Source: Tubulanus polymorphus
Lineage: Eukaryota > Animalia > Nemertea
Length of the DNA: 64,000 nt
NCBI RefSeq assembly: GCF_964204645.1
Contig: NC_134026.1
Location: forward strand, 1,263,950-1,327,949
Direction of reading: 5' to 3'
Position numbers and translations under genes: made by a program. The notes under the pieces are model-generated. The model made no database searches, was not told the origin of the DNA, and saw only the letters and a program-made list of their open reading frames with translations. Positions within the stretch are counted from its first letter, which is position 1. The number at the start of each line of letters is the position of its first letter. Below, piece after piece: positions 13,001-34,500 of the stretch.

Positions 13001-16000
13001 GAGCATTTCATCAAGATTATCGAACAAGTATTTATTATTTACACAAGGTTTTTATGTGTTTGCTCGTTTGAAAGCTCGTGACCGAACCCCGTACCGGGAT
13101 CGAACGAGGCTTTTTACATATTTCATTCACAACGCGCAGAGCGGCGAATAAATTCAATCCGTAAATTATCATCAATTTGATAATTACTACGAAACACGAA
13201 CGACGAACGAGACACGGAAAGTTGGAAAATATTTCACTTTTTATTATTAATTCATAAACGTTAATGCGGAACATGCGTGCTAAAGCAGCTGATTGTAGTT
13301 AGTGCATTTAGTTATTGCTATTGATGGTATATTTCTCTATAAATTACTGTATTAACTCGGTATATTCGATAGCCGCGTGTTTCATCGACGAGTTTACGAC
13401 TTACCGATCATCATCGGCGCATCGCATATACATTTCTAAATCATGACCGAATATTTGAAATGAGTTGCCGCAATCAGCAGGAACCGCAGCAACCCGGGAC
13501 GCATTAATGCAAATGATTTTCCATCGGGTGAATTTATGATACTGTTAACGACGAGACGACTGCGAACACTAAACGCTTTTACAACATACTGTTTACAGAA
13601 AAACTATAGAGTACAAGCATCGATCTTCCGTCATCAGTCGAAATTACTGTAATTTACCACCATATGCTTTTAACTCTTTTGGAAAATTACGGTAAATTCT
13701 GTATCGATTCGATCGTCGGCTATGTGGTAATATACACAGGCCTGCTAAGCACAAAATTTATTCAGGAAAATTTCATAGTTATATCGAAGAAACTTCAAAA
13801 TTAATCATTAATTAACTGTAAGACCCTCGATAACACCTTTTACGACAAATCATCAAACGAATCAAATTAGCATTTCATGGAAATCAGAAACATTGACAGG
13901 TAGAAATTTCATGCAGAAAAAATTCTAATCCGCGTTACCGATCAGACACGGTTTATTGGCCAGAAAATGGTCAGTCAGTGAACCTGGAATGATCTACATA
14001 ATTGCCATGCGCTTTTAAAAAAGTCCAAGGTCGTCATCCTCCTAGCAAACGCAATGAGTTCTAGCTTTTGCCTTACATTTCAAGCAGCATAATTAACACA
14101 GCTGGCTCCAGTCGACCTGGGTCTGAAGTGTTAATTGATTTTTCTGTTTATTTGATCAATGACGAACGGTGCATTATGATAATGAATTAATGACACGTAT
14201 ATTCTGATTCGTGTATCTTATCATTGTTTTTGTCGCGACGGGATTAAAACAAGACGATTGTCAACGAGTTCATCCGATAACCGCAATAAATACTTCAACC
14301 GGGTTCAAATTATTTTTTCAACATCAACCCACTTAGCGCTGAGCAGGACATTAGCTGTTATCCTGAATATTGTTTTAAGACCTTATCACGGGACCATCAG
14401 GGGGGTGTGTAGGCCTCCCACGGGAAATTTTAGAATTCTTATCTCCTCTAGATATATTCTGAGCATTCATAAAGACGTTAAATTAAATTTTTCACACACA
14501 CATCGCTCCAAAATACTTCGAACATAAGTCTGCTCTGATGTTTGGTGTATCGAAAAAAAATCTTGAAAGTAACAGCGGTAGGCTGGATCGGGGCCGGTAG
14601 CAGGTTCGAGAGAGAGATCAGCTAGCAGAATCTTCAACCAAGAAACAACTCCAAAATTCCCACAATGATTTACAGGTTTTACAAAACCAGTGTTCTTCGC
14701 AATAAGTGTTAAGAGTCACAAACTGGACGGATCAAAATAACATTTCCTGAACTTCATCAACACAGCTTGTGCATAAATTCTGAGCTCCATGGTATATGGC
14801 ATCAAACGGGGACAAAAACATGTTGACAAGAAATGCTTCTGAATTTTTCAGATTTTCATCCCTGCTATGTTAAAAACCAGCTGTTACACTTATATCAGTG
14901 CACCTAATATAACAGTGCACCTTAACCAGACAGTAAACATAATTAATGAAGAGTTCATTAACCTTTCACGTTATGTATATAGATACAATGTATACACAAC
15001 AAACCTTGATAAACACCTGTATCTGTATAAATGATAAACACTACATCCTGTTGAGTAGTTTAAACACCAGGGGCAAAACTATCATCATCTGCATTTTTTT
15101 TAACACCCTCGACCGATGTTTTTCCCAATGGGGGAGAGACCAGAGAAGAACCACCGACCAAGAAACTCTTTCGCCACCAGGGTTTGAACCCATAAACCCT
15201 TGAATGACGAGACTAGTGACCGGCGCCTTAAACCACTCGGCCACTGCACCTCGGACACCAGCATCATTTACTTTAAACATCTACAGATATTACAAAATGT
15301 CTATTTCATATATACACATGGATATTGCGGGTTTATTTTAACACTACACATCGACTGTGACAAGTTTAAACTGATCTTACCTCTTTCATTTTATGAAAAT
15401 CCACAGCTGGTCGGTCGTCTTCGCGTCGTCGCTTTACGCCACATTTACGATCGGAGAGAACGCACGGCTGCGAGCGACTTCGCATGATTCGATGTCGTCT
15501 TGGAGACGCTATAGTCGAGGATGAACCGGAGCCTCCGGAGTGCTGCTGCTGCTGCTGGACCGATGAGACGCCGGTCATCACGCCTGATGAGATTGCCTCC
15601 TCCACCGATATGCTACGATTCTGCCGCGTTAAACCGAACCAGTTCATAAAACACGAAGCCGTACCGACCGTCGACTGTTCAAACCACGGCGCCGTAGAGA
15701 ACGACGAATTACTGGAACTATCTACGAAACCGCTCGATACGGACGCGGGCCGCGGCACCGGTGAATCACGCGGAGAAGACGATAACTCCGACGACGAACG
15801 TAGTCCGCATCCGGGCGATATCACGTGACTACCTCTGAGGAGACCCAGCGGAGAATTGCGATTTTTTATCGACTTGTTATTGTTAGTGTGCGGACGCAGC
15901 GCGATCGGTTTCAATACGTTATGATTGCACCACGTCGAGTTACTCGGTATCGACAGCGAGCGACATTGTCTTTTCTTTGGAGGAACGGCGGCGACATTCG

Positions 16001-16952
16001 ACAACGCCTCGCAGTGACAACAAATCTCTAAACCAGTCGAGTATTTCTTGCGATGTTTGCTGAATGTAGGCGTTTCCAAGCTACGCTGAGGCGTCTTCGT
16101 TTGACGGAATGCTGAGAATGCGCCGTGGTTGTACGCGCCGGCTTCAAACATGTTGTGGTCCCAACCTGTAAATAACGAAAACGTGTGAAACCATTCCATC
16201 AAAATGAGAGGAAAATAATAAAGTGAAATTCGACTAAGTCGTTTTTGGGACTAATTCATTAATCAAATATTAATGGGGCACAAATATTTCATCATTGCAT
16301 TTTGCCTGTATCCACAGGATGTGATCAATGGCACTTTATATACCAGGTGTGTTTTTAGATGTTGTCCGAAGATCTCTTAACTATCTGATGCCCAAAAAGA
16401 AGCGAGCAGCTTATTCCACATGCGTGGAGCAAAACTAGAGAAACAGCGATCTCAATGTTCTGGACTCTATCTCAAGGAGTTGGAGAGTACAAACTGAATT
16501 CTTGATTTCATTTCTGATCTTTTAAACTTGTATTGAGCAGGTTTAAATTGTATTATCAATGCACACGTCTGAGTCAGTTTGATCCTAAACTAAAGCGCAG
16601 CTAGTGTCGTGGGTAAAACTGAATCACGCCGAAGGAGGGCTGTATTTCAAATCCTTTTAAGTTGGCAGAGAATTACGACAACATTTCTTTCACCTGCTGT
16701 GCCTTTGAACGCCGTGGCAAAATCGCTTTGAGCCAGAGGCATGATCCAGTTCGTAAATTTCTTCTACAAAAGAGTAAATAAGCAAGTCATACATCGTGGA
16801 ACTAACTATATAGGCGTCTATTGAATATGATTCATGCTCGACGCGACGCGAATCCAAAAATGCAAAAGACTTTTACTAACCGTAGACTCGGCGGTTGCAC
16901 TAACATCGTGTAGCGTTTGAACACGAAACTTTTCTGTAATAATGTCAACCAT
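10086..16952 (-). CDS. FAM53: FAM53 family protein; coding exons 16952-16881, 16763-16694, 16165-15381, 11763-11716, 10430-10086
   Basis: N-terminus MVDIITEKFRVQTL, PPKKRQCRSLS motif, RSRSQPCVLSDRKCGVKRRR..RPAVDFHKM motif and C-terminal DLEQIEND* all match recalled FAM53A/B/C. All introns are GT-AG and phase-compatible. Confidence 0.9.
11081..11337. mobile_element. ~260-bp MITE (family B), copy 1, in FAM53 intron
   Basis: TIR cagggtccgatctaa ... ttagatcggactctg; internal cttgccc motifs; inverted copy at 33142-33406. Confidence 0.85.
12630..12887. mobile_element. MITE (family C, cagggtggccac-type termini)
   Basis: gggatggcca ... gtggccaccctg with ttccctga/ttttccagg internal motifs; relatives at ~25870-26030 and 52268-52550. 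Confidence 0.6.
15100..15255 (-). mobile_element. tRNA-derived SINE head in FAM53 intron
   Basis: Minus strand has A-box TGGCCGAGTGG and B-box GGTTCAAACCC, but no intact cloverleaf. Confidence 0.65.
16330..16460 (-). mobile_element. 3' fragment of an L2/CR1-group LINE ORF2
   Basis: Minus strand encodes DRCFSSFAPRMWNKL...KTHL, resembling the DRAFS.AAP.LWN.LP...KT.L terminus of L2/CR1-group LINEs. Confidence 0.55.
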
Positions 16953-17230
16953 GACCAAACCTCACCCAGACGAACATCTGAAATCATCTACGACGATTGA
17001 CATGCGCGATCTGCAAAGAGAGAGATAACTTATAAAGACCTGTTCATACTTTTTTTTTTTCGACGTGAATCAAACCGAAAATAAGCGAATGCAAACTGCC
17101 ACATTTCAGACATTAAACACTGATGATTCAATATGCATTTTTAACAGTAATCGATATTACAATGAATATGATCTACTTTTTAGCTCATCGCTTGTGTAAA
17201 TATGTATAACTGAGCTGAACTGGCTGGTGT

Positions 17231-18012
<782 letters not shown>

Positions 18013-21000
18013 CGGCATTCCAATAACACCCCCTCGCAAAAAAAAAAACTACCGTAAATGCTTTATAACCTTCATAAAAGATTAAACCTATTCAATGTTA
18101 TTGACGCCTACCTCTATACTAGGGTAAACAGTATGCAAAACAGGATGAATAATATGCAAGTTTCAAACACTATATCTGGTATAGGCACTTATCCGGTATA
18201 TCGGCAGAGCAGAAGACAATTCTCGCATACCAGTAATTAGGCAATTAATACATATATATGAATTTTGAAGTATTTTGTACTGAAGTTTTGCGCACAAAAA
18301 AAAGGATATCGTATGTAGAACGTCAATAATATTGATTCATTCACGAGCGACCAAGAGAAAGAATGAACTGACTTACATAAATTCGGTGCACTTCGCTCAT
18401 GTTCTACCATAACAGCATTTTCGGCTCTGAAATAAACAAAGAAAAATGAAGGAACATCTGTAATCACACGCTACAACCAAAGTAGCTATGTTTTTAGAAC
18501 ACACGACGCACGGTGGGATCAACCGTGCACTGTTATAATGTAGAATAGTAAACCTTACGATCGAAGAAAAGATTACTGCAGTAAACTGAACCCATTACTG
18601 CCCGAGGATAGGAACAGTTCGAAGAGACAAAGAACATCCGCGAAAGAAAATGTCACAGCGTATGTTATAATACACTACACCTTTTTATCCCGTACGAAGT
18701 CATAAATTTCACATACGTCAATATCTTACGACAGACGAACGAACGGTCGCGGTAATCTTATTCAAACGTGATTTCGTTCGCGTCGTCGTTGTAAAAAATA
18801 TCGAGAGAAATCACTTCGGTCAATGATATTCTTCTTTGTACGCGAAAGCCTATTCGGCACTTTCTTTTTCTTGTAAATATTTCACGCCGTAAATTCAGGT
18901 CAATGGCTGCCACGATTGGAGAAGAACTAGCTCGCTAAGTATATATATATATATATACACGTAAATAGGAACCGGATGAAGTAAAATATTGTAAATATTC
19001 AAACTTCAAAATCGGTTTTACGAATCACAACACGACGCATATAGGCCTAAACAACAGCCGCCACTCAAAACGTCGAATCGCATTTTGAATTGATTGATTA
19101 AAATTTCCAAAACGCACAATTCTTGTCATTAATACCATATATACGTGCCACAGGCGAATGTAAGCTTATACTCGTACATATGGGGCTGAATGAAACTCTA
19201 GAACACTTAGAAAATGAAATTTTCACCATGAATTGTACTGAATTAATAATTACAGTACTGACTCATTATAGATGTTTTCGATATTTGACAGAAATGCGTT
19301 AATTGTATCAACAGCTGCAACAATATGGTATTGGCTTATATGACTGTCACACCTGCGCAATCAGGGGGCCGATCCAAACTTGGGGGCATCGTCGCTTGCC
19401 ATGGTTTGAGTGCCTCACGCCAACACAAACCCTGGCCGCAGACCCTTTATTGGTCTACTACACCGCCCAAGATTTCTTGGGCAGACAGGTTGCCAAAACA
19501 ACATATCTGATTGGCTTACAAAGACTGGTGGCCGCAGAGTGGCAACCTGTCTGCCCAAGAGACCACTCCCGGCCAAATAGGCTAGGCCTACATGTGTGGC
19601 TAGACCTAGTTGGTACCCTTCTTTAGAGAATGCAACATTGATGAGCGTTGAAAAGCGAAACGAAATGAGAGGGAAAACCTAGATCAGGTTGATTAATGTT
19701 AATGTTTCTCACATTCTGGCAATCTTCCAGGACTTGTCTGCAAGAACCGCAGAATACTAAAAGAAGCAGCAGCAGCGTACCACGAGCAACTGATTCACAT
19801 CTCTAGACGTACAGTCACCAATCTAGGACAATGATTACAATGTATATGGTTATTCACGTCACTCATATTTCATCTAATAACCTCTTCTCTCACTAAATCA
19901 GCAGCAGCAGACTGTGGTTTCACACGAGATACATTACACTGCATTTAGACCATGTTGCACGGTATCAGTAACACCAATGATCAAGTTATCAGCTAGCTTT
20001 TTTTACCAGTTCAATGCCAATCGATCGGAATATTGCGACAGAGCGGTATAAAATTTCAGACCTGATCTGAAATATTAGGGCATATCCTAAATGAAAAACA
20101 AACTAGGTAGGTATCAAGGGTCAATGATTCCTATATTCTGGAGGGTCATGTCATGGAATCTTTTTAGCTGGCGTCTCAATCATCGTTTTTGAACCCGGCA
20201 CAAATATAAACCATCTAACACCAATAAAGACCTGCATCCAGACATGACTGCCTCGGAAACGCAGCAGAGAATTGTGATTATCAACTTGTATATTTAAACC
20301 ATAACCGACTGACCATATCTAACAATAACGGAGCATAGCTGGGGCTTCAATAATGTGAAAGGTAGATAAAAGAATTCTATAATTTTCTATAATTTTAAAA
20401 GCATTCGTTTCATTCTGTCTTCACTGAAACTGCAGAAACATCTTCACTCAAGAGTCACTTCACACATACATTTTTTGTTGTTAGATCAGCAAATGTCGGC
20501 AAACTCTGATATATCATGTCCTAACCGCGAGCGTCACCAGGTTTTGAACCCACCACCCCTACGGTCGGTTTATTCATGTAGCGATATTTAATAATGGCAT
20601 TTATTACGAGTTGCCAATCAAAGATTAGACCAAGCTATAAAGACAGGATTAACCTAACCATATCCTAAATACACCATAACAAGTAAAATTTGGTTGTGGC
20701 CAAAGACCTCTCCTCAGACTCAGTCTCAGACAGTGCTGGTAACATAATTTCTAATCAATAAGCTCTTACAAGAAATGTCATGATAATTTTTCTGCAGATA
20801 GATTATTCAAATCGTGAAGTCTACGCTGATGCAAGTTAATTCACGGAAACATTTTTCGAAATACCATCTACTATGTAAAAGCATTGAAAACGAACGAGCG
20901 GATTAAACCCAGACTATCAGCAGCGAATGAACAATTTTACCCGGGTTTTGTCAGCGCTAACAAAGGCACAATTCCTACTAAGTTCGAAGTTGTTTCACTA

Positions 21001-21030
21001 CAGAACATATTTAATTCGATCAGAACTTAC

Positions 21031-21130
21031 CTGATGAGGTATACGTGAGTTTTGACGCGGTTTCAAGCGATGAGAAAAGCCTGAAGAATGGCAGCTAACC
21101 AGGTTCCAGTTGGCTGCACGGCTCTCTAGT
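21031..21130 (-). other. Probable non-coding first exon of FAM53
   Basis: Strong minus-strand donor CAG|gtaagt at 21030; CRE-like tgacgt and ccaat motifs at ~21158-21178; acceptor at 17011 precedes the ATG exon. Confidence 0.45.
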
Positions 21131-22849
21131 GCATTGCACGGAGAGGAGCACCTGCGATGACGTAGTGCGTCAACCAATCACATCATACACGATTATAATA
21201 ATTTTTTCCTCCTTTTAAAACATTTTTTCTTGTCTTGCCTTTTTCTAACAAAAAAATTAATCAATTCCGTAAATAACTTTGATGATATTCGATCGTACGA
21301 ATTAGATTTTTTGGTCTAACTTCTAAACTATAAATACTATCATCTGTGGGGAAATTAGATTTTGGTGAAAATCTAGAAAACGATTGCTCGCCACCCCCAA
21401 GAGTCGTATTACTATGCCAAAAAATGATTTAATGCTTCAAAATATATTTGGCGATATTATAATATAGGGTCAATTTTGCAGTGTATTATTTCTTTCATTC
21501 CATCGAATTCGGCCTCTCAAAAACGGATTTTCTTCGTATTTTCAGTTATCAACTTCAATTTCGCAATCGCGCACACGTAAATATTTTCAACACAACGTTT
21601 TTGGTTAAAAAGGAAAAGGGCTAAGTAAAGAAAAGGTTGACGTCTGACCTTGACTGACAGTTGGTGACATTCGCGTGCACCGTGTATCAAAACATCACGT
21701 ATTCGAGTTCGAAATATTAACTAAAAACAGGACAAATTAATGACCAATGAATTAAATCTCAAATTTATTTACTTTATCTTTCGTATTCTAGGGTCTACGT
21801 AAATTTTCCGTGAGCATTCAACGTGAAATTGTTGAAATGTTTTTGCAAATGTCGAGTCTATTGTAGCCACGTGCGTTTGTTTACATTTTTGAAATACAAA
21901 TCTATTGACGAAACGTTGATCAGTTCTAAACGCTTCAGACTGGCTATAATCCACGTTTGATGAGGCAGTTTTATCATTTTATATATGAATAAAAATGTAT
22001 AATTTATCGGGATGATTATCAGGAATGTGTATTCAATGGATATTGAAAAATAAAATCATTTTCTCCTGGTCGCAAATCATTCACAAAGTTATCCATTTAG
22101 TTACGACTTAATTGATCACCTCTTTAGAGTCTGTGTAAGCGCCTTTCAGTTTCGATAATCAGAAAAATACTGAAATTCCGTTCTATTTTTTGTCACTTTT
22201 TTCGTGACCAAATCAAGTAAATGTGTCTTGATTAGTTCAGCTAAATAACAGGCAAGTAAATACGATATAGAACCGTAAATGATCACTTTTTGTGACTGGA
22301 TTTATGGATTTTCTTAAAAAATATCGTCAACACTTTTTCTACTACCTACTAACCAGAGTACTACTACTACTACCACTTTCCAATCCAAGTTTGAGCGTTC
22401 AGTGACAGGAATGTCGGTGCTTTTTTGGGTCAAAAGTTACTCATTTTGAATCCCTAGACCTCCCTGATAATAAATATGCAGAAATAAAAATCTTTGGGAG
22501 GGGGTACGAAAGTGCAATAAGGGGCCCTAGCGCGGGAACGTCCAATCTGGTCCAATGCACTTGCCATTCTGGTCAGTTTGTTACGAATCATTAGAATACA
22601 GGCTGTTCATCAAGGCTAATTCAGGTTGATTTAAATCTGATCGTAAACAGTCAAAACTCTGCGATTTTCTTAACGGGAACCTTTTTCGATATGAATGTAT
22701 TCATGACCAGGAAAGATTAGTCGAGTCGCTATAAGTTGACCTGAGCTAGGCTTTTGTCCATAATTAAAAGACGATCACATGTAAATCAATTTTAGATACA
22801 ATATAATATTATTAAGGAATGTATAATTTCAGTAGTATATTCATCCACC

Positions 22850-25800
22850 GTGGCGGCTTTCCTTGTTGATAACCGGTATCTGAATGCAGTTGATGAGGTG
22901 TTTGTTGAAAACGTTGCTGACGATGTTCAATCGTTCAATGACAATGTAGTGAATGATCCAGAAAGGTATATTGAATTTTAATAGATAGTTCCAGGATAGT
23001 TGTTGGTGTTCTTCTCCGTAAGTTCAGCTGGTATTCGGACTATGAAAACTCACCTAAAGTACAGTTTGTTTCTAGTACGCGGTTCCAGTGTTACGAGTTG
23101 AATTCGAATCCCTTTCTCAAATCATAGGCTGAAGACCATGACTGGATTTAAAACATATAGTACTTGAGACAATTTGAATTAAGAATTTGTTTCTTCTTTC
23201 TTGCAGGGTTTTGATATTTCCTGCAGTGGATAACTATCATCGTCTATTAATTCACAGGACGGTCGAGAAATTTCCTGATCTGAAGAGTTTTTCAATCGGT
23301 CAAGGCCATCAAAGGCGAACAGTAGTGTGTTCATCATCAAAACATCAGTAAGCATGAATAGTTATGAAATGGGACGGGGTCAATTTAACGCCTTGAAAGT
23401 CGTAGAATGGCCTCTGGCATCATTAAATCAGGGTCATAGTCCTGCCTCACACACTAATACAATTTAAAGCTTTTTGGTCCTATTATGATGTCTAGTAAAC
23501 TAGTCTGGTAAGAGTAATCTCGACTGAAAACGATGATTCTGGGCTATAAGCCTCTTTCTTTAAAAATAGCAAACGTTCCAAATCTAATTATGATTTCCTG
23601 GCGATTTTAGACAATTTGAGGAAAGTATGAGCGATAAACATTCCCAATGTGACCAACACGAAGGAGAATCGGCGAGTCAGAAAGAATCATCGGAATCGAA
23701 ATATCGACCACCGAGGCATTCTTCATCGCGGAATCGAAATGATTCATCATCACCGAGAGGGTGTACCTCGCCTGCTGCTGGGTGTAGTTCATCACCGAGA
23801 GGCTGTACCTCGCCTGCTGCTGGGTGTAGTTCATCAAAAGTATGTAGATAATTAGTATTCGCCGTTATTTTCATCCTACCTCCAGTATCCCACTAGATGA
23901 CGAGCGTATCAATACTTGGTCCAAATTTTTTTCATATTTCATTGGTGAATTTGCATATGGAGCCCTAATTCAAAAACAGAAGACAGATTAAATATCATGT
24001 TTGACCACTTACATGATCTCGTATAATAGCTAAAGAATTCACTGATTTACAGGTTGTCACCGGGACTACTGGCTCATCTCACAGTCCAACACCGATCTCA
24101 GGAGAACCTGCACAACAAGCCAATGAAAAGAAACGTGCAAGGTATGTTCTTCAGTTAACAATAATAGATATAGAAGTGAAATAATGCTGTCTTCACTTTC
24201 AATCTTTCTTGTTGTTTTTCATGGGTTTACATCTATAGACTAACTATTGGTTTATTTTGTTTTTGATAGAGTCAAACCTCGTCGACCTGACCAACAAGTT
24301 TACGTGCCGAGGGGTCGAAGAATGGAAATATCTGCTCAACAGACATCGTCCGATACAGTACCTAATACTGAAACTGTGGTGCCACCGTCGGCTTGTGCCG
24401 GTCGAGATCGGGACTCGGTCAGCAGCGTAAACACTACTACAGTCTCCGGTGAACTGGTTGAAGCTAGCCGCGAACAAACGCAGAGACAACGTCCGGAAAT
24501 ACCGGTTTACGTACCACGCGGTCGCAGGATGCAACAACTCATGATTCTGGCTGATAACGAAAATAATGAAAACCTAGTCAAATCTCAAGAACGCGAAGCG
24601 GAGGAGGCAGCTCAAATCAGTGCGAGTCGATCAATAGCCGAAACATCTCCTCTCCGTGATGATTTACAAACAGAAATGACGGACGTCGAGGTTTATTTGG
24701 AAGCCCGCGATTCTCCGTCAAACGACGGCGACGCGTATCACTCGTGTTCGGATCACTTGACCGGCGGCAGCACTCACGAGGATCAACATCGTTCGAGCAA
24801 CGCTTCGTCGAGCGGTAACTCGGAAGAACCGAGTAAACCGAAGAAAAAGAAAAGCTCATCGGATCCGCATAAACTGAGAAAAGGGTCGAGCAAAAACAGC
24901 GGCAAAGACGGCACTAAACGTAAAAAGAGCGATAAAAAGAAATCTTCGTCGAACTCTAATTTGATGGCGGTCGATGTCGTTTCGGATGTTTCTAATAGCG
25001 TAAATAAAAACAAAGCCGGCGAAATAGACGCTTTAAAGAATGACGTCGATCGGCAAAAAGAAATGGACACCGATAGAAAACAATACGAAATAGCAGCTTT
25101 CTCAAATAAATTCGTACAGGGCGCGACCGATGGATATAAAGATCTCTTCGACGATAATAATCGTCTGGCTTTCGAAAACGATTTATCGTATCGAGAGGAT
25201 GATAGCGTCGGGTCGTCGCAGATGACTCCCAGTGAAACGTCGTACGTCTCCGCGAATGAATCTATGAATACTAGCGGCGATATTGTAGCAATGAATACTA
25301 GCAGCGATATTGTAGCAATGAATACTAGCAGCGATATCGTAGTCGATAAACTCATCGTTGAGAATCAGCGCGGCAGTTGCTGCGCGATCGAAAAACGTGA
25401 CGAAATGCCTCGCGTCGCTTGCGTTTACGATATCAACTTTTCAAAAGAGTTTGCGCCGGCCGTATCGAAAGAATCGGCAATTGCTCAGACGTCTTCAGAT
25501 CACGGTGCTAGCGTCAAATACAATCAGACGGAATCAGAGGCCGATGAATCGACCTCGATTCACAACATTTCGCGAACCGCGCGAGTTGAAACGGATATGA
25601 ATAGTAATAACATGAACACTGACGCGAGTAGTGAAACTTGTGCAAAAGAAAGTGAAATCAAATCAAGTGCTGAAAATCGATCGGAAATAGTTTCGAATTT
25701 AATGAACGGTATTAACGATGCTGCAACTGCTGCTGCTGCTGCTGAAACTACGAAAACTTCAGACATCGATGATGAAGATTCGTGGGATAGAATGTTCAAC

Positions 25801-28800
25801 GACGAAGGCGAAGCTTTGGATCCCAACTTTGTCGATGAGGTAGGTCTATGATACACCCCCTTATATTAAGAACCTGGAAAACTCAGGGAATTCGTATTGC
25901 TATTGATCACATGTTTTTTTGTGTAATTCGATGAAAAATGAAAACCTAGAAATTTCTCTGATTCGCTCTGATTTTGTGAAATCACATGGAAAACTCAGGG
26001 GATTTGTAAGTGCGTGGAAAGAGACCACCTGAACAGACTGTGGTTGATGCAGTTCTGACAACATTCATAATATTGTTGGTGAACATTTCTTGAGATGAAA
26101 TTGGTGTTATACAAACTTACCGATTTTCTGTTTGCTTTTCAGCTGACAAAAGCAGTCGGAAAAGTCAAAGTACAAAAAACGAAATGTAAATATCTTGAAT
26201 TTCAACCGAAGGAGCCTGACATGGATTATGAAGGTAAAAGATACATTTATTTTGTTCATCAATTCCTGTGGAAATTTTGTTACGTATTCGTGGTCATAAT
26301 ATTCAATGAATGTTAATTTTAGCGTACAACCATCTGATTGAAATCGCTGACTTTCCACCCGGATTCGTGAACAGAGACATTTTAGCGGCTTTTAAAGACT
26401 ACGTGAAAAAAGGTTTTGACATCAAATGGGTCGATGATACACACGCTATAGGGATTTTTTCAAGTTCAATCGCTGGTCAGTATCGTACAGTCTGAATGTG
26501 TGAGATTCTGTTGGGAAGCTTATCCTCGCTCTGATCAGAGAAGTTCATTATAGCGAAACAGCTCTAGTGAACCCAACATAAACGCAGAATTTAACTTCAA
26601 ATATTTTTATCAAATTAATGATCTATTAAGTTATCCCGACTGATATCTATTTTCACGGTAACTACCGGTAATTAGATAAGTAATAGATATTTTCAACTGT
26701 AGCTAGTTAATCAGCTTCCTATCAGAGATAGATGATAGCTCTCTATAGCAGCAGTTGATCATTAACGATCAACTTATTAAATAACTACGGTTCATTTCTG
26801 CAAATGTCTTTGTATCAACGAGTCAATCATTTTCATGTATAGAATTGACAGTAAGAATGCGCAGCGGTTTATTAGTTCTACTATTACGAGTGCGTATTAT
26901 TTCTATCATTCTAGTTATCTCTGACGTGTTTCTGTTATTTCTCTAATCGACGACATTTTCAAAAGCGATATCATCATGGAAAATCAATCGTTATTCATGA
27001 ATATATCTGGTGTGGTGATGACTACGGAAGGAGGGTTTAAACCCCATCGTCGATGTAGATACATTCACCATTCCGACTACAAACCATTTCACGTGAACCT
27101 GTTTCTTCAAGTTATTAATTATATTATTTTTAGCCTTTCCGTTCTCGGCGTTGGAGGAAACCTACTCTCGTTGATAATGCTCAGCAAGGAACCCTCGACA
27201 ATAATATATTTTACTTGAAGTGTTTAGCTTTTTCTGATTTTCTTTTGTGCCTTACGTCAGTCGTGATTGATTTTCAATATGAGCTGTATAGTCACACTCT
27301 CCTATTGGATATGACTGCAAAATTCAACCACGATATGAAGCGAATGTATTCATATACGAGAAATCTTCAAATGATATTCGGAAAATTCGGAGATCTTTTA
27401 ATTCTTTTAATCGCCGTCGACAGATATATCATTGTGTGTTGGCCTCTGAAAGCGGCCAGAGTTATCAACATGAAAAGAAGTTATATCTGTGTCTCTTTAA
27501 TCGCGTTGATATCCGTGGTGAATTTGAGTCGAAATTTCTTTAAGTACTACACGCGTCGTTCTGTTAACCCGTGCACTGGACACGAGAGGTGGACGCAAAA
27601 GTTGACTTCATTCTCGAAGAACATTTATCTGAGATACTACGAGACGTTTTTCGTCGTTCCCGTTTTTATTTTCGTACCTACAGTTGTTCTGGTCGTATTA
27701 ACTATCCGCTTGATTTTCACGTTGCGATCGGCGGAAGCCACGAGAATGTGTCTACGTCTAGTGGTACGGATAAGAGTCTAACGAGAACTCTCATTCTCAT
27801 TTCATGTTTTTATTTGCTGAAAAAAAGTTTCAACGTAAATTCGGGGATAGTTAATTTTGTTGATACTCTACGCGGTTCACTTGGTAAAAACCAGTATATC
27901 TTTTATACGAACGCTTTACAGAGTCTGGTCAGGATAAAGATATCGTCTTGCAATTTCTTCATCTACTGCGGTTCAAGGCAACGCTTTCGTAACAACCTTG
28001 CAGCGACATTCAGCTGTCGATGCATACAGCAATAGTATCTTTAAACATGTTTGTCTTATGCAGGACAAACTAGAGACAGTGATAGATTTACTAGATATAG
28101 TAAATAGGCACTCACTGGAAAAAAACTAACACACAGAATGTGAAAGGAAATCGATAGATTTTAATGTCTTTTTTTAAACTTTTGACTTCATTCACCGACC
28201 AACTCTCCACAATATCAACTTTGTTGTTTAGGCTGGCCTGTACTGCTAAGGGCTGACTTTAATAGATATGGGCGATAACAATTTTTAAAGTGCTAAAAAT
28301 CTTGTCGATTAATCTGCATCAGTGTCATCCACTGCTTGAGCATTCTATACCCAGTGGCATCTTATCACTCATTGATTTACTGTCTCTGTATTCTCTGATT
28401 CCCGTCGCTCCATGTATATGTACATAGAAACTGTTGTTTCTTCTCTGACTGTACTCATTTGCCTGATGTATGAAGCTACTTTAGACGCTAGAAGCAAAAG
28501 CTTGTACTTCAAACGATAATAAATTTAGTAAACTGTTTGTGTGTTTTCATTTACTGATTGGACACCAGGTTCAGACAGCTCCTCTGAAAATTTCCAGTAG
28601 TACGTACTCAAATTGTTGTTATGCACTAAAAGTTTTTCAGCTACATGCATATAGCTGCCTTGCAGCCATATTGAACGATTAATTTCGTACTCTTGCTAAA
28701 ACTCATAATAAAGACAACAATGTTCGGCTATAACGAAATGAGTTGAAATATGCTTGTTGATGCTGGTACATGTTTATGATTAGGGACCATCTAAAATTTC

Positions 28801-30135
28801 CATAGTTCCCTCAATAAGAATAACTGTCTAATTGGTTTTAATCCCCCCTCCCACCCGCCTTTGATTAGACACATGCCAAAGTTGGAACTATTGATTTTCT
28901 AATGAGAAACCACAGACAAAGATAAGACATTCTCACGAGTGTTCGATCACAACTTTTAATTGAAAAATAAATTAGCAAAATTACAAGTGGAAAACCTATT
29001 AAACTTAAATAGACTTTATAAACAAAATAAGATATATCTTAAATACAAACAGCATCAAAAGTGAGACGGTTAAATCTACTGCTTGTAATAAATATATTTG
29101 AAACTGCAATTCAATGTTATCTGTATTGTACCGCAATAAATCGATAGTTCGGCTGTGGTGATGAATCTGCAGGAGGCCTTAACCCCCCCCCCACCCCCTT
29201 CCGCGAGTTATTCTAATTGAAGTAACTAGCGAAATTTTGAGATGCTCCCTTACTGAGTCTTTTCAAACCTTACTCCTATTATCCTGTGCAGTTAGCTCAG
29301 TTGGTTAAGTGGAGGACTGGGAACCAAGAGGTCCCTTGTTCGAATCCACCTCTGGTGTTGGCTGTCGAGACATAGCCCTGACTGTCTCTTAAGCTCCACT
29401 AGGGTTACACTGTAAGCAATTGCAGTTGGAACGTGAAACTCTTCTAAACTCTAATTACTTTTTTCAGCCAAAGATGCTCTTGAAATGAATCACCCGATGC
29501 TGAATGTTTTACCGTTGTCGAAAGCGACGAGGCAAACGAAAATGAAAGCGAAACGTTGTACCGAATTTCTACAGCCATACAAAGCGCGGCCGGAAACGAC
29601 CGCTTTGACCGCTCGTAGAATGGTGACCGGTGCCCTGGGTATCGCTCCGAAAGTATCCAGAGAACTTCGAGATCAGGAACGCAAGAAACTAAAAGAAGCT
29701 AAAGGTAAAAGATTGCGTAGACGGTTGCCCTGAAATTTACAGGAAAATGAAAAATGTTTAAATGATACCTAAACAAGTTTAAATTCATTTTCTCGTTCTC
29801 TTAAACTCAATTTTTTTGTGTAATTGCTATTGGTTACTTCATGTTTTCAATGAGGACAACAATTCGGACTTAACCGTTTTAGGCTTAAACTTTTTCGTGA
29901 AACTAGGTCCAGTATTTCCAAAAATGAATAAATACCGTAATATTTTCCCATGAGCTTTCTTTCGAGATGCCGTTTTAGTTGTAAAATATGAACTATTTCG
30001 AATCAGATCCTTTGAATCTTCATCCATTTCGCTAATAACTTCCTCTGATTTTTAGAAAAGAAGAAATTAGCCGTAAAGCAACGAAACGATGCTTGGGAAG
30101 GAACGATCGGAAATTGTGCAATGGATGAAGTTTAG
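22850..30135 (+). CDS. R3HCC1L: R3HCC1/R3HCC1L-family protein (R3H, two EJC-binding motifs, C-terminal RRM-like/coiled coil); exons 22850-22965, 23207-23347, 23611-23839, 24053-24141, 24270-25839, 26143-26233, 26323-26475, 29468-29704, 30056-30135
   Basis: R3H VLIFPAVDNYHRLLIHRTVEKFPDLKSFSIGQGHQRRTVVC; RRPDQQVYVPRGRR; HLIEIADFP..GFDIKWVDDTHAIGIFSS; RPETTALTARRMVTGALG; DAWEG. All junctions are phase-compatible. The GTG start is inferred. Confidence 0.9.
23741..23835 (+). repeat. 39-bp in-frame coding tandem duplication (SSSPRGCTSPAAGC x2)
   Basis: tcatcaccgagagg.tgtacctcgcctgctgctgggtgtagt repeated. Confidence 0.85.
25264..25342 (+). repeat. 27-bp coding tandem repeat x3 (MNTS[GS]DIV[AV])
   Basis: atgaatactagc.gcgatattgtagca. 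Confidence 0.85.
26976..28035 (+). pseudogene. Intronless class A (peptide-receptor-like) GPCR with two frameshifts, nested in an R3HCC1L intron
   Basis: TM1 GVGGNLLSL, TM2 YLKCLAFSD, TM3 IAVDRYIIVCWPLKA and TM7 SSCNFFIYC are spread over three frames, with shifts at ~27205 and ~27745. Confidence 0.8.
29286..29420 (+). mobile_element. tRNA-derived SINE head / tRNA pseudogene
   Basis: A-box TAGCTCAGTTGG and B-box GTTCGAATCC at tRNA-like spacing; stems degenerate. Confidence 0.6.
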
Positions 30136-31560: not shown

Positions 31561-34500
31561 CTAAGATACAGGATCATCGGGTAACTGATTTAAAACATAA
31601 TTCATATGACCATGAATAACGGCATTCAAATCCGAGGTCATTGTCATTAAACTTCGAAAATTGTCTTTATTTGATAAGACACCGGTAGGACGAGCCATCA
31701 CGTCTGATAATACTTTGTATATATGATTAATCTTCTGATACACATCGACCCTGAGTGGAAACGATAACGTTTTACAATACGTCACAAACGCCGATAACCA
31801 ATTGTAATATTCTTGACTAGAAAACTGAGGATTTTCGATGTAGTTCGAATCAATGATCGCGTTATGATCAGTTTTACACAGCTGAGAATTTGCCGCCTCT
31901 AAACCCTGAGAACGTAAAGAGTTCTCTGGCTCGCACGCGTCGGCTAGCAAGCTTAACGTTCCTCGCTCGAAACATTTACTACTAGATACGACGCCATTAT
32001 TCGAGCAAGCGCCCGTATCGTAAGAATGCTGAGAAATCGATTCGTTTGATGGTATATCAACATCATTTACAGATTCAACCGGTCGGACGGTTGAATTATT
32101 AGTATTTACGGGTGAAATATCCGAATAGATTTGTTCATTCTCATCCGTCAAACATGTAGCAGTCTCTTCTATAATCCGTGAACAGCTAGTACCGGTCTCA
32201 TCAACGCAGTTATTATCCGGTAAACAGGTTATAAATCCTAAATCCGATAACTGTTCATCGTGTTCGTCATTCAGCCCTTCGGTAGGCGTCTCTTCACCTA
32301 ATAGCGATATAGGTTGAGCCTGATCATGCTCTAAATCGATCGTACCTAGTCTAACTTGCTCGGCGATCCGAGACGCGTCCTCCGTATCGGGTATCGTTAT
32401 GATGTGTATATTTATACCGGTTTCGTCACTGTTCTCAATTTGCCGAGCTTCTCGTAGTTGTACGAGAACTCGTTGTATTTGATCCTGAACGTTCTGAATG
32501 TCGATCGCGTCCTGATTATTTTCGTTGACTGCCCGGTGAACGGTCGATCGTATCGACTGATTATCACCGGTACAACACTCGTGAGTTTCTAATCGAGCTA
32601 TTTGAGTGAAACGACCGCCGCACGTTTCGCAAGCGAATCCTTTCTCGTCCGTGTGATTGCGTAAATGTCGTCTGCAACTCGACCGATCGTTAAAACGCAG
32701 ATTACAAACTGAACACTGGTACGGCCTCGTCCCTGCGAGTAGAAAAACACCAAAATTGATTTATTTGTTCTGAATTTTGTTTAGCTCATGGTGAAAAGGT
32801 ATCATCTCAGGATTTGTTTTACCTCTATGTATAATAGCGTGTCTGTTCAAGTCCGACCGATATCCAAATACTTTACTACATAATTCACACGAGAAACGTT
32901 TTTCACCTGAAACGAACGAATGAAAATACGGATCAATAATCAATGAGATAATGAAAGAAATGTTTGTAGGTTAAATTTAGAAACCTATTTTAAACTTTTT
33001 CTAGTCTCACATACAATAGATATAGAAGGTCATTCATTTATTATTCAGTGCATGAATTTTTCTGTCTTCTGCCCCCATTTAAACAGTACGTTCATATTCC
33101 TGTCTCCTGCGTAGTAAATCAATCTGAAAACTTTGCCTATTCAGGGTCCGATCTAAGCACTTGATCGATTGCCAGGGACAAGTATATTCTCATCAGGGCA
33201 AGTAGGTAATCATTATCACCCGTCCGCCGGGCTAGTCCAATTTTTTATGCCACAAAGCTTTTTTTTTTCCCTACTCGATACAACGGATGATAGTGCCACC
33301 AATCCGTTTGCCTGTGTAGGGCAAGTAGCTTTTGAAGGCGGCAAGTGAAATATCAGATATGCTTGCCCCCCGGGCAAGTGGCTTTCATTCCTTAGATCGA
33401 ACCCTGCTATTGATGAAACAGCTAATATACCTGTATGGGTTCGTATATGAGATCTAAGATACGCAGGCTGCGCGAATTTCCTATCGCAAATATTACACGA
33501 ATATTTCTTTTCGCCGCTGTGTAAAACCATGTGACGACTGAGACAACTGATCTGACGGAAATGTCGGTTACAAACAGAACACGCGTACAGTTTAGTATCC
33601 GAATGCCTCGAACGATGTTCCTTCAACGCGTGATTCGTCGTGAAACCTCGTCGACAGATTTCACAAGAGAACGGTTTTATACCTGAAATACATTCACATC
33701 GATGAGTCGAGAAGATACACAATATTCACGTATGATGAATAATAAACATTTGAGCAATGCTTCGGATAAACTATTAGCCGTCATTAGGCGTATTGCTGAT
33801 CGCTAAATACTCTTTAGTTGAAACATTGCTCCCATATCCAAGAACTTTACATGTTTGGATGAAGTATTGCTGGATTTTCCTTGTACATTCGCATTGAACG
33901 TTCAAGTTAAGGTATATGTTCTTAAAACAAGAGACCTCGCTTAATTCGGATCATTTAGGACCAACGAAATTCATCAGGTTTATAGGAGACCGGATTAAAC
34001 CTCATTTCGGTGGACCACGAAGATCAGAATCCATATTGCAGTAAGCTGATCCGGATTAAAGCAAGATCTCCACACTGTACATAGAATATATTCAATCATT
34101 CATTCATAAATCTTTTTTTCTTCCTGTATCAAATTACCTTGATGCGCTAACTTATGTTTTTCACAGGTTTCCTTAGTTCTAAATGATTTCTTACAATCGT
34201 GGAAGTCACATGTATATGGTTTTTTGTCGGTGTGTGTCAGAAGGTGCTGTTTGAAATTACCTGAAAATTCATATATTTCTTGGTCACATGGCCCAGTTCC
34301 ACAGTTGTGAGTTAGAGTAAACTCTGAGTTAAAGTTAGTTCATTTTCAATGTTTTAACTCGGAGTCAAATCTTAACTCACGACTGCGGAACTGGGCCCAG
34401 GGTTCTTAATGATCAAGGAAAATTCTGACTACTTTCTTGAGAAGTCAGGGAATTTGAATTTATAGTCCGATGCTGGTTGATAGTGGTACAAGGAACCTTT

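Follow-up and report, generated by a model that had tools for sequence, protein, structure and literature searches.

A probable GUG start codon in the R3HCC1-family gene of the nemertean Tubulanus polymorphus and its likely counterparts in other animals

Gene model and start region

The window analysed here, 64,000 nucleotides of DNA from the nemertean Tubulanus polymorphus (NCBI RefSeq assembly GCF_964204645.1, contig NC_134026.1, positions 1,263,950 to 1,327,949), carries on its forward strand a gene whose predicted product is a member of the R3HCC1/R3HCC1L family. The C-terminal region of this product, RRM-like and coiled-coil, matches 16 of 16 vertebrate-type homologs with BLASTP scores of 98–230 bits, and its Pfam RRM matches lie below the cut-off; the N-terminus carries an R3H domain (Pfam PF01424, 47.1 bits against a cut-off of 26.8). 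The gene very probably starts at a GUG, the GTG at window position 22850, and the full-length, R3H-containing protein would probably begin there at a near-cognate position (CUG or GUG) common to many animal lineages.

The transcript was traced in contigs of sequencing runs, with runs X3 and X5 taken as RNA because they contain splice joints. X3 has joints for all nine modelled introns, X5 for six. An exon at 22189–22251 is linked to position 22833, over a GC-AG intron, by a single X3 contig of depth 31.5; this contig covers 22189–22248 and joins at 22830, with three ambiguous letters at the joint, and 22251–22833 is the only joint into the acceptor at 22832/22833 in the contigs of the runs. 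The first-pass annotation, made from the letters alone, had raised the prospect of an upstream exon spliced to this acceptor and supplying an in-frame ATG. The exon in X3 is spliced there, and the sole ATG of the spliced leader (22221), which stands in the frame of the GTG, is closed by TAG at 22233 and then TAA at 22242. Since that ATG opens only a four-codon upstream open reading frame (uORF) shut by in-frame stops, the R3H domain requires a near-cognate start. The gene model is as follows.

22189..22251, + strand: leader exon, non-coding, whose 5′ end may lie further upstream (X3 spliced contig)
22221..22235, + strand: four-codon uORF in the GTG frame, ATG in weak context (T at −3), closed by TAG 22233
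22242..22244, + strand: in-frame TAA bounding the main open reading frame (ORF) in the spliced mRNA
22252..22832, + strand: leader intron, 581 nucleotides, GC-AG (CAG-GCAAGT ... TTTCAG), full-consensus donor
22555..22624, + strand: RefSeq-predicted first coding exon (XP_074644039.1), with the rival AUG; a prediction without RNA-type contig
22833..22965, + strand: start exon, with a 17-nucleotide leader, then 38 codons including the first R3H helix
22850..22852, + strand: GTG, putative start codon (A at −3, G at +4)
22884..22955, + strand: six out-of-frame ATGs
23207..23347, + strand: R3H exon (PF01424, E 9.7e-12; joints in X3 and X5)
23611..23839, + strand: exon with Met92 (ATG 23627–23629), putative second start, for an R3H-less form
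24053..24141, + strand: coding exon (joints in X3 and X5)
24270..25839, + strand: large low-complexity exon with two R-(R)-P-[DE]-x-x-x-Y-V-P motifs (~24280 and ~24490)
26143..26233, + strand: coding exon
26323..26475, + strand: coding exon, RRM-like region (NCBP3 and RRM Pfam matches below cut-offs)
29468..29704, + strand: coding exon, conserved C-terminal region
30056..30135, + strand: last coding exon, stop TAG 30133–30135

The two R-(R)-P-[DE]-x-x-x-Y-V-P motifs are what we take to be exon junction complex (EJC)-binding motifs.

The start region reads TCCACC-GTG-GCG at 22844–22855, and with A at −3 and G at +4 the GTG has the near-ideal Kozak context that had been pointed out on first pass. 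Contigs of three runs read this codon with zero other letters (X1, DNA-type, 22462–23419; X2, DNA-type, 22824–22894; X3, spliced), so that a misread ATG, a worry raised at the same time, is ruled out. Also borne out is the reported lack of any ATG between an in-frame TAG at 22793 and the GTG, with the refinement that this TAG is intronic and that the frame of the mRNA is bounded instead by the TAA at 22242–22244 in the upstream exon. The ATG at 22819 is, as then described, out of frame and soon closed (16 codons), and it lies 5′ of the acceptor; in the spliced mRNA the main ORF indeed meets its first ATG at 23627, encoding Met92, past the R3H domain at residues 18–80 counted from the GTG. The spliced ORF from the GTG comprises 901 codons. 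Between the TAA at 22242 and the conserved block the only near-cognates are ATA at 22245 (T at −3) and the GTG itself, which is the sole strong-context start candidate 5′ of the R3H domain. From the GTG through the R3H domain the conserved block is intact, with 30–52% identity across phyla and a mean predicted local distance difference test score (pLDDT) of 89.5 in fold prediction.

Between the GTG and Met92 lie six out-of-frame ATGs (22884, 22893, 22923, 22938, 22944 and 22953) opening ORFs of 1–21 codons. A stable hairpin 3′ of the GTG, which would be a helper feature and is not required, is not supported: folding of the stretch +13 to +73 yields only −6.0 kcal/mol, calculated without a shuffle control. 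A trans-spliced leader ending in AUG was considered and rejected: the X3 contig is cis-spliced and, because both acceptors are in phase 2, such a leader would give a stop or the wrong frame. A literature search turned up nothing on nemertean trans-spliced leaders among the papers listed.

The matching codon in other animals

Sole CUG initiation of R3HCC1 has been proposed for mammals, the CUG being described as mammal-specific, with AUG in non-mammals (PMC3105428). The human start reads CTG-GCC-CTT-CTC-TGC-TTG-GAT-GGT-GTC-TTC-CTC (PMC3105428 supplement), and its xALLCLDGVFL matches xAAFLVDNRYL of the nemertean residue for residue, as the first-pass alignment had it. This CUG is backed by ribosome profiling, reporters and N-terminal proteomics (PMC5714202; PMC8287933; bioRxiv 2022.05.02.490320), and also by PMC5778536; its efficiency is ~30%, and eIF5 raises and 5MP lowers its use (PMC5714202). 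The human and nemertean genes have in common their family, the position of the start relative to the R3H domain, and a near-identical context (GTCACC-CTG-GCC versus TCCACC-GTG-GCG). Six out-of-frame AUGs lie downstream in both, an equality that is probably a coincidence. Unlike human R3HCC1, the nemertean gene has GUG, and its host is a protostome.

The same position can be followed in protein models. Among 285 stored proteins, the N-terminal block is present in 164, which form 48 groups at 70% identity, and 23 of these groups extend at least 11 residues 5′ of a conserved Tyr. In 21 of the 23, a triplet consisting of a residue with a purine-first codon, Leu or Val, and a residue with a G-first codon stands 4–9 residues before the Tyr; a stricter rule demanding an A-first codon is obeyed by 20 of 23. 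Control windows carry the triplet in 14 of 81 and 26 of 115 cases, and 0 of 10,000 shuffles match the real count. The triplet is Kozak-shaped, mostly with Lys first and with Ala, Asp, Glu or Gly last, and stands where conservation begins, from a cnidarian to birds. Among invertebrates (18 groups), the central residue is Leu in 16 and Val in two, preceded by Lys in 12. Identity at −1/0/+1 is 0.44/0.79/0.32, as compared with 0.05–0.11 upstream and 0.06–0.16 at +2 to +5; this profile fits a start context in the nucleotides and does not fit a motif in the protein. Carriers of the triplet include Actinia, Patella, Plakobranchus, Centruroides, Schistocerca, Periplaneta, Cloeon, Toxorhynchites, Drosophila tropicalis, Pararge, Anneissia and Ptychodera, and 37 of 51 bird and mammal models have T-L-A at the conserved spot. 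Some RefSeq models are 5′-partial (three of six in Schistocerca, and that of Cloeon).

Codons were seen in orthologous DNA. A degenerate R3H pattern retrieved 28 metagenome loci, 27 of them true orthologs with the same intron position; the other, L006, was a chance match and was dropped. Viral and prokaryote contigs gave 0 matches to this pattern. Of the 27 loci, 21 contain the start exon (L001, L003, L005, L008, L011 and L017 are without it in the available DNA), and all 21 have a codon matching the nemertean GTG: ATG in 18, CTG in two and GTG in one. A near-cognate at this codon, which had been looked to in orthologs on first pass, is therefore present in three, and the ATG of the other relatives marks the codon as a start. 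The CTG loci L002 and L015 read ATC-CTG-G and are 92% identical to each other; the GTG locus, L022, reads AAG-GTG-G. The start codon is offset from the nemertean GTG by one codon in 19 loci, by zero in L024 and by two in L027. All 19 script-scored loci have a purine at −3 and G at +4 (the G being a condition of the codon pick), and the acceptor lies 8–25 nucleotides 5′ of the start codon in all three phases, as for a non-coding leader. L002 and L015 also have in common an out-of-frame ATG in good context 22 nucleotides 5′ of the CTG, opening an ORF that overlaps the CTG and would damp its use further.

Taken together, these patterns suggest that the weak start of R3HCC1, published as mammal-only, is likely to be much older and to have a much wider range than mammals, and we favour, with fair confidence, inheritance of the near-cognate start by descent across animals. 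The first-pass annotation had called near-cognate initiation in this family possibly ancient. Its breadth stands, given the cross-phylum signature; its direction does not, since AUG occurs in many lineages and the tree is silent. A tree of the block (57 rows, 76 columns) is poorly resolved, with 29 of 54 inner branches open, and counts 15 changes of start type, at least 3 of them forced by well-supported branches, with their direction not oriented.

The strongest alternative is that GUG is used here and near-cognates arose repeatedly from an ancestral AUG, the match to the human CUG being convergence. The interspersed AUG-type and Leu/Val-type starts on the tree fit this, as do the 18 loci with ATG in their DNA and the AUG reported for non-mammals (PMC3105428). 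However, the Leu/Val type spans a cnidarian, molluscs, the nemertean, a scorpion, five insect orders, a crinoid, a hemichordate, birds and mammals, so convergence needs many independent losses of AUG at one codon, and several "Met" models begin 5–10 residues downstream and may mask an upstream near-cognate start. We regard repeated origin as unlikely, though worth keeping in view.

Several observations weigh against the GUG start, or against its wide conservation. The triplet rule was fixed after the pattern had been seen, and the named invertebrates are known by their amino acids, with codons unseen. Met starts at Y−9 to Y+2 occur in 25 of the 48 homolog groups (including Pecten, Hymenoptera, Strigamia, Adineta, Latimeria and carp), and ATG in 18 of 21 loci (16 from one clade and two further), so the near-cognate is not universal. 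In L002, L015 and L022 there may be an upstream coding exon, and L022 has an in-frame ATG 18 nucleotides upstream if an alternative acceptor is used. In Tubulanus the leader joint comes from one contig of one run, and its sample differs from the best DNA source. The out-of-frame ATGs are not enriched (6 versus 2.7 per 91 codons; NAT:NAC before G 6:2 versus 21:28; p = 0.13), which leaves selection for them unsupported, and the other near-cognate loci have only 1, 1 and 3. On the Met-starting groups, a CTG at the start of a model is given as Met by Ensembl, and Met1 of Latimeria and carp may be affected by this; one Ensembl-style bird model has Met where other birds have Leu.

A further point on that side is the RefSeq model XP_074644039.1, built with an ATG at 22555, which adds 29 residues in an open frame up to the exon end at 22624; if correct, this upstream coding exon would give an ordinary AUG and make the GTG at 22850 an internal valine. 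Models of other species also have upstream Met prefixes, but these are unrelated among species (identity 0.05–0.11), and orthologs with ATG carry it at the GTG position. Neither X3 nor X5 has an RNA-type contig over 22520–22807, although contigs drop rare isoforms; a gap in X2 cover over the exon was set aside and is not used as evidence. The exon's donor, CAG-GTTGAT, has one of four consensus letters at +3 to +6, where the nine donors with RNA support have 2–4; the ATG of the exon is flanked by C at both −3 and +4. We read this first exon as a gene-finder patch, and consider an ordinary AUG start through it improbable. As a separate observation, a high-copy repeat (22421–22519; depth ~4,300 in X1) lies just 5′ of it.

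A second start and known non-AUG systems

Met92 has counterparts in other invertebrates. An in-frame Met between the R3H end and the first RPD..YVP-like motif is found in 37 of 37 testable invertebrate groups (5 of 42 were dropped for want of the landmark); the expectation is 24.3 of 37, and 0 of 200,000 protein-level simulations reach 37. Flanks compatible with a strong context surround this Met in 16 of 37 groups, versus 44 of 201 other Mets (p = 0.012), and both p-values are generous because the groups are related. Human CUG is described as a near-sole start, while invertebrates keep this second in-frame Met just past the R3H domain; it is kept in 2 of 41 amniote R3HCC1 models having the motif.

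Vertebrate R3HCC1L-like proteins, which we take to be such from the human N-terminus, resemble the predicted Met92 form: 19 of 19 hand-picked examples start 8–12 residues before the motif, and the R3H block was found in 0 of 11 checked. The C-terminus of the nemertean protein also scores higher against them (162–230 bits) than against R3HCC1 (98–128 bits). One R3HCC1L-like model, P0063, extends a little upstream of the usual Met, and this extension faintly resembles the R3H end, with no Pfam R3H match. For R3HCC1L, an RRM and a coiled coil have been described, and co-localisation with the EJC has been predicted (bioRxiv 2024.10.29.620958).

These likenesses allow a tentative reading, to which we give not quite an even chance: the ancestral animal R3HCC1 may have been a two-start switch, whose products the vertebrate duplication split into R3HCC1 as the CUG form and R3HCC1L as the AUG form. 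In such a scheme, scanning ribosomes would pass the weak four-codon uORF or re-initiate after it. A fraction would initiate at GUG 22850, yielding a 901-residue R3H plus RRM protein; those that continue beyond the GUG would run into the six short ORFs opened by out-of-frame AUGs, and a share of them would arrive at Met92, or resume initiation there, giving an 810-residue form without R3H. The ratio of the forms would be set by start-codon stringency, as in human R3HCC1. A two-isoform switch by leaky scanning had been suggested on first pass; the Met in 37 of 37 invertebrate groups speaks for two forms, but the six out-of-frame AUGs would hinder simple leaky scanning, and re-initiation may be needed. 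If the two-start reading is true, the non-AUG start is as old as the cnidarian–bilaterian split, and translational isoforms were partitioned by gene duplication; the R3HCC1/R3HCC1L split would then have an origin open to testing.

That only the AUG at 23627 is used, with the R3H exons a relic or reached via another downstream near-cognate, is scarcely credible: Met92 has A at −3, many database models begin at the matching Met, and CTG 22880 and GTG 22898 are in frame, but the R3H block is intact at the identity and pLDDT given above, the CTG has T at −3 and A at +4, and a start there or later cuts conserved residues.

To our knowledge, main-ORF non-AUG starts spanning animal phyla are few, EIF4G2 being the standard example. 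The start of EIF4G2/NAT1/DAP5 is GUG in human and mouse (PMC5666671) and AUU in fly NAT1 (PMC4528330 Table S3). The R3HCC1-family start is alike in being a near-cognate main-ORF start in distant animals, with a lineage-dependent codon; it differs in that its position toggles to AUG in several lineages and that an AUG-started, domain-less isoform is predicted. CG2162 is the putative fly member of the R3HCC1/R3HCC1L family. A FlyBase analysis lists Drosophila CG2162 with an AUC start (PMC4528330 Table S3). If CG2162 does belong to the family, its lack of an AUG had already been noticed by a curator; the Drosophila tropicalis homolog carries K-L-E at the conserved position, a sequence that favours CUG over AUC. 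R3HCC1 is unmentioned in the available parts of PMC5666671 and PMC13754004, and no paper on invertebrate R3HCC1 initiation was found in a search of mainly open literature, bioRxiv supplements aside.

A start kept from cnidarians to mammals would imply selection for low or tunable output, and its presence across phyla would permit a direct test of eIF5/5MP control in flies or worms. It would also account for the truncated or partial database models of the family and for those with unrelated first exons.

Neighbourhood of the gene

A FAM53-family gene (15366–21100, reverse strand) lies head-to-head with the R3HCC1 gene. Its 5′ exon, spliced to ~18426 in X3 and X5, lies at 21031–21099 or beyond, which leaves ~1.1 kb for further R3HCC1 leader exons. 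An intronless sequence of the rhodopsin family of G-protein-coupled receptors (26976–28035, + strand; Pfam 7tm_1, E 1.2e-10) is nested on the same strand in a 2,992-nucleotide intron of the R3HCC1 gene; it is split over three frames and so appears to be a pseudogene or an assembly error. Within a coding exon of the R3HCC1 gene, at window positions 23760–23840, there is a short tandem duplication with two copies of a SSSPRGCTSPAAGC-like unit. C2H2 zinc-finger-like ORFs, judged by eye, converge on the 3′ end of the gene (31561–33725, reverse strand), and a pure GA microsatellite of ~850 nucleotides occupies 17200–18050.

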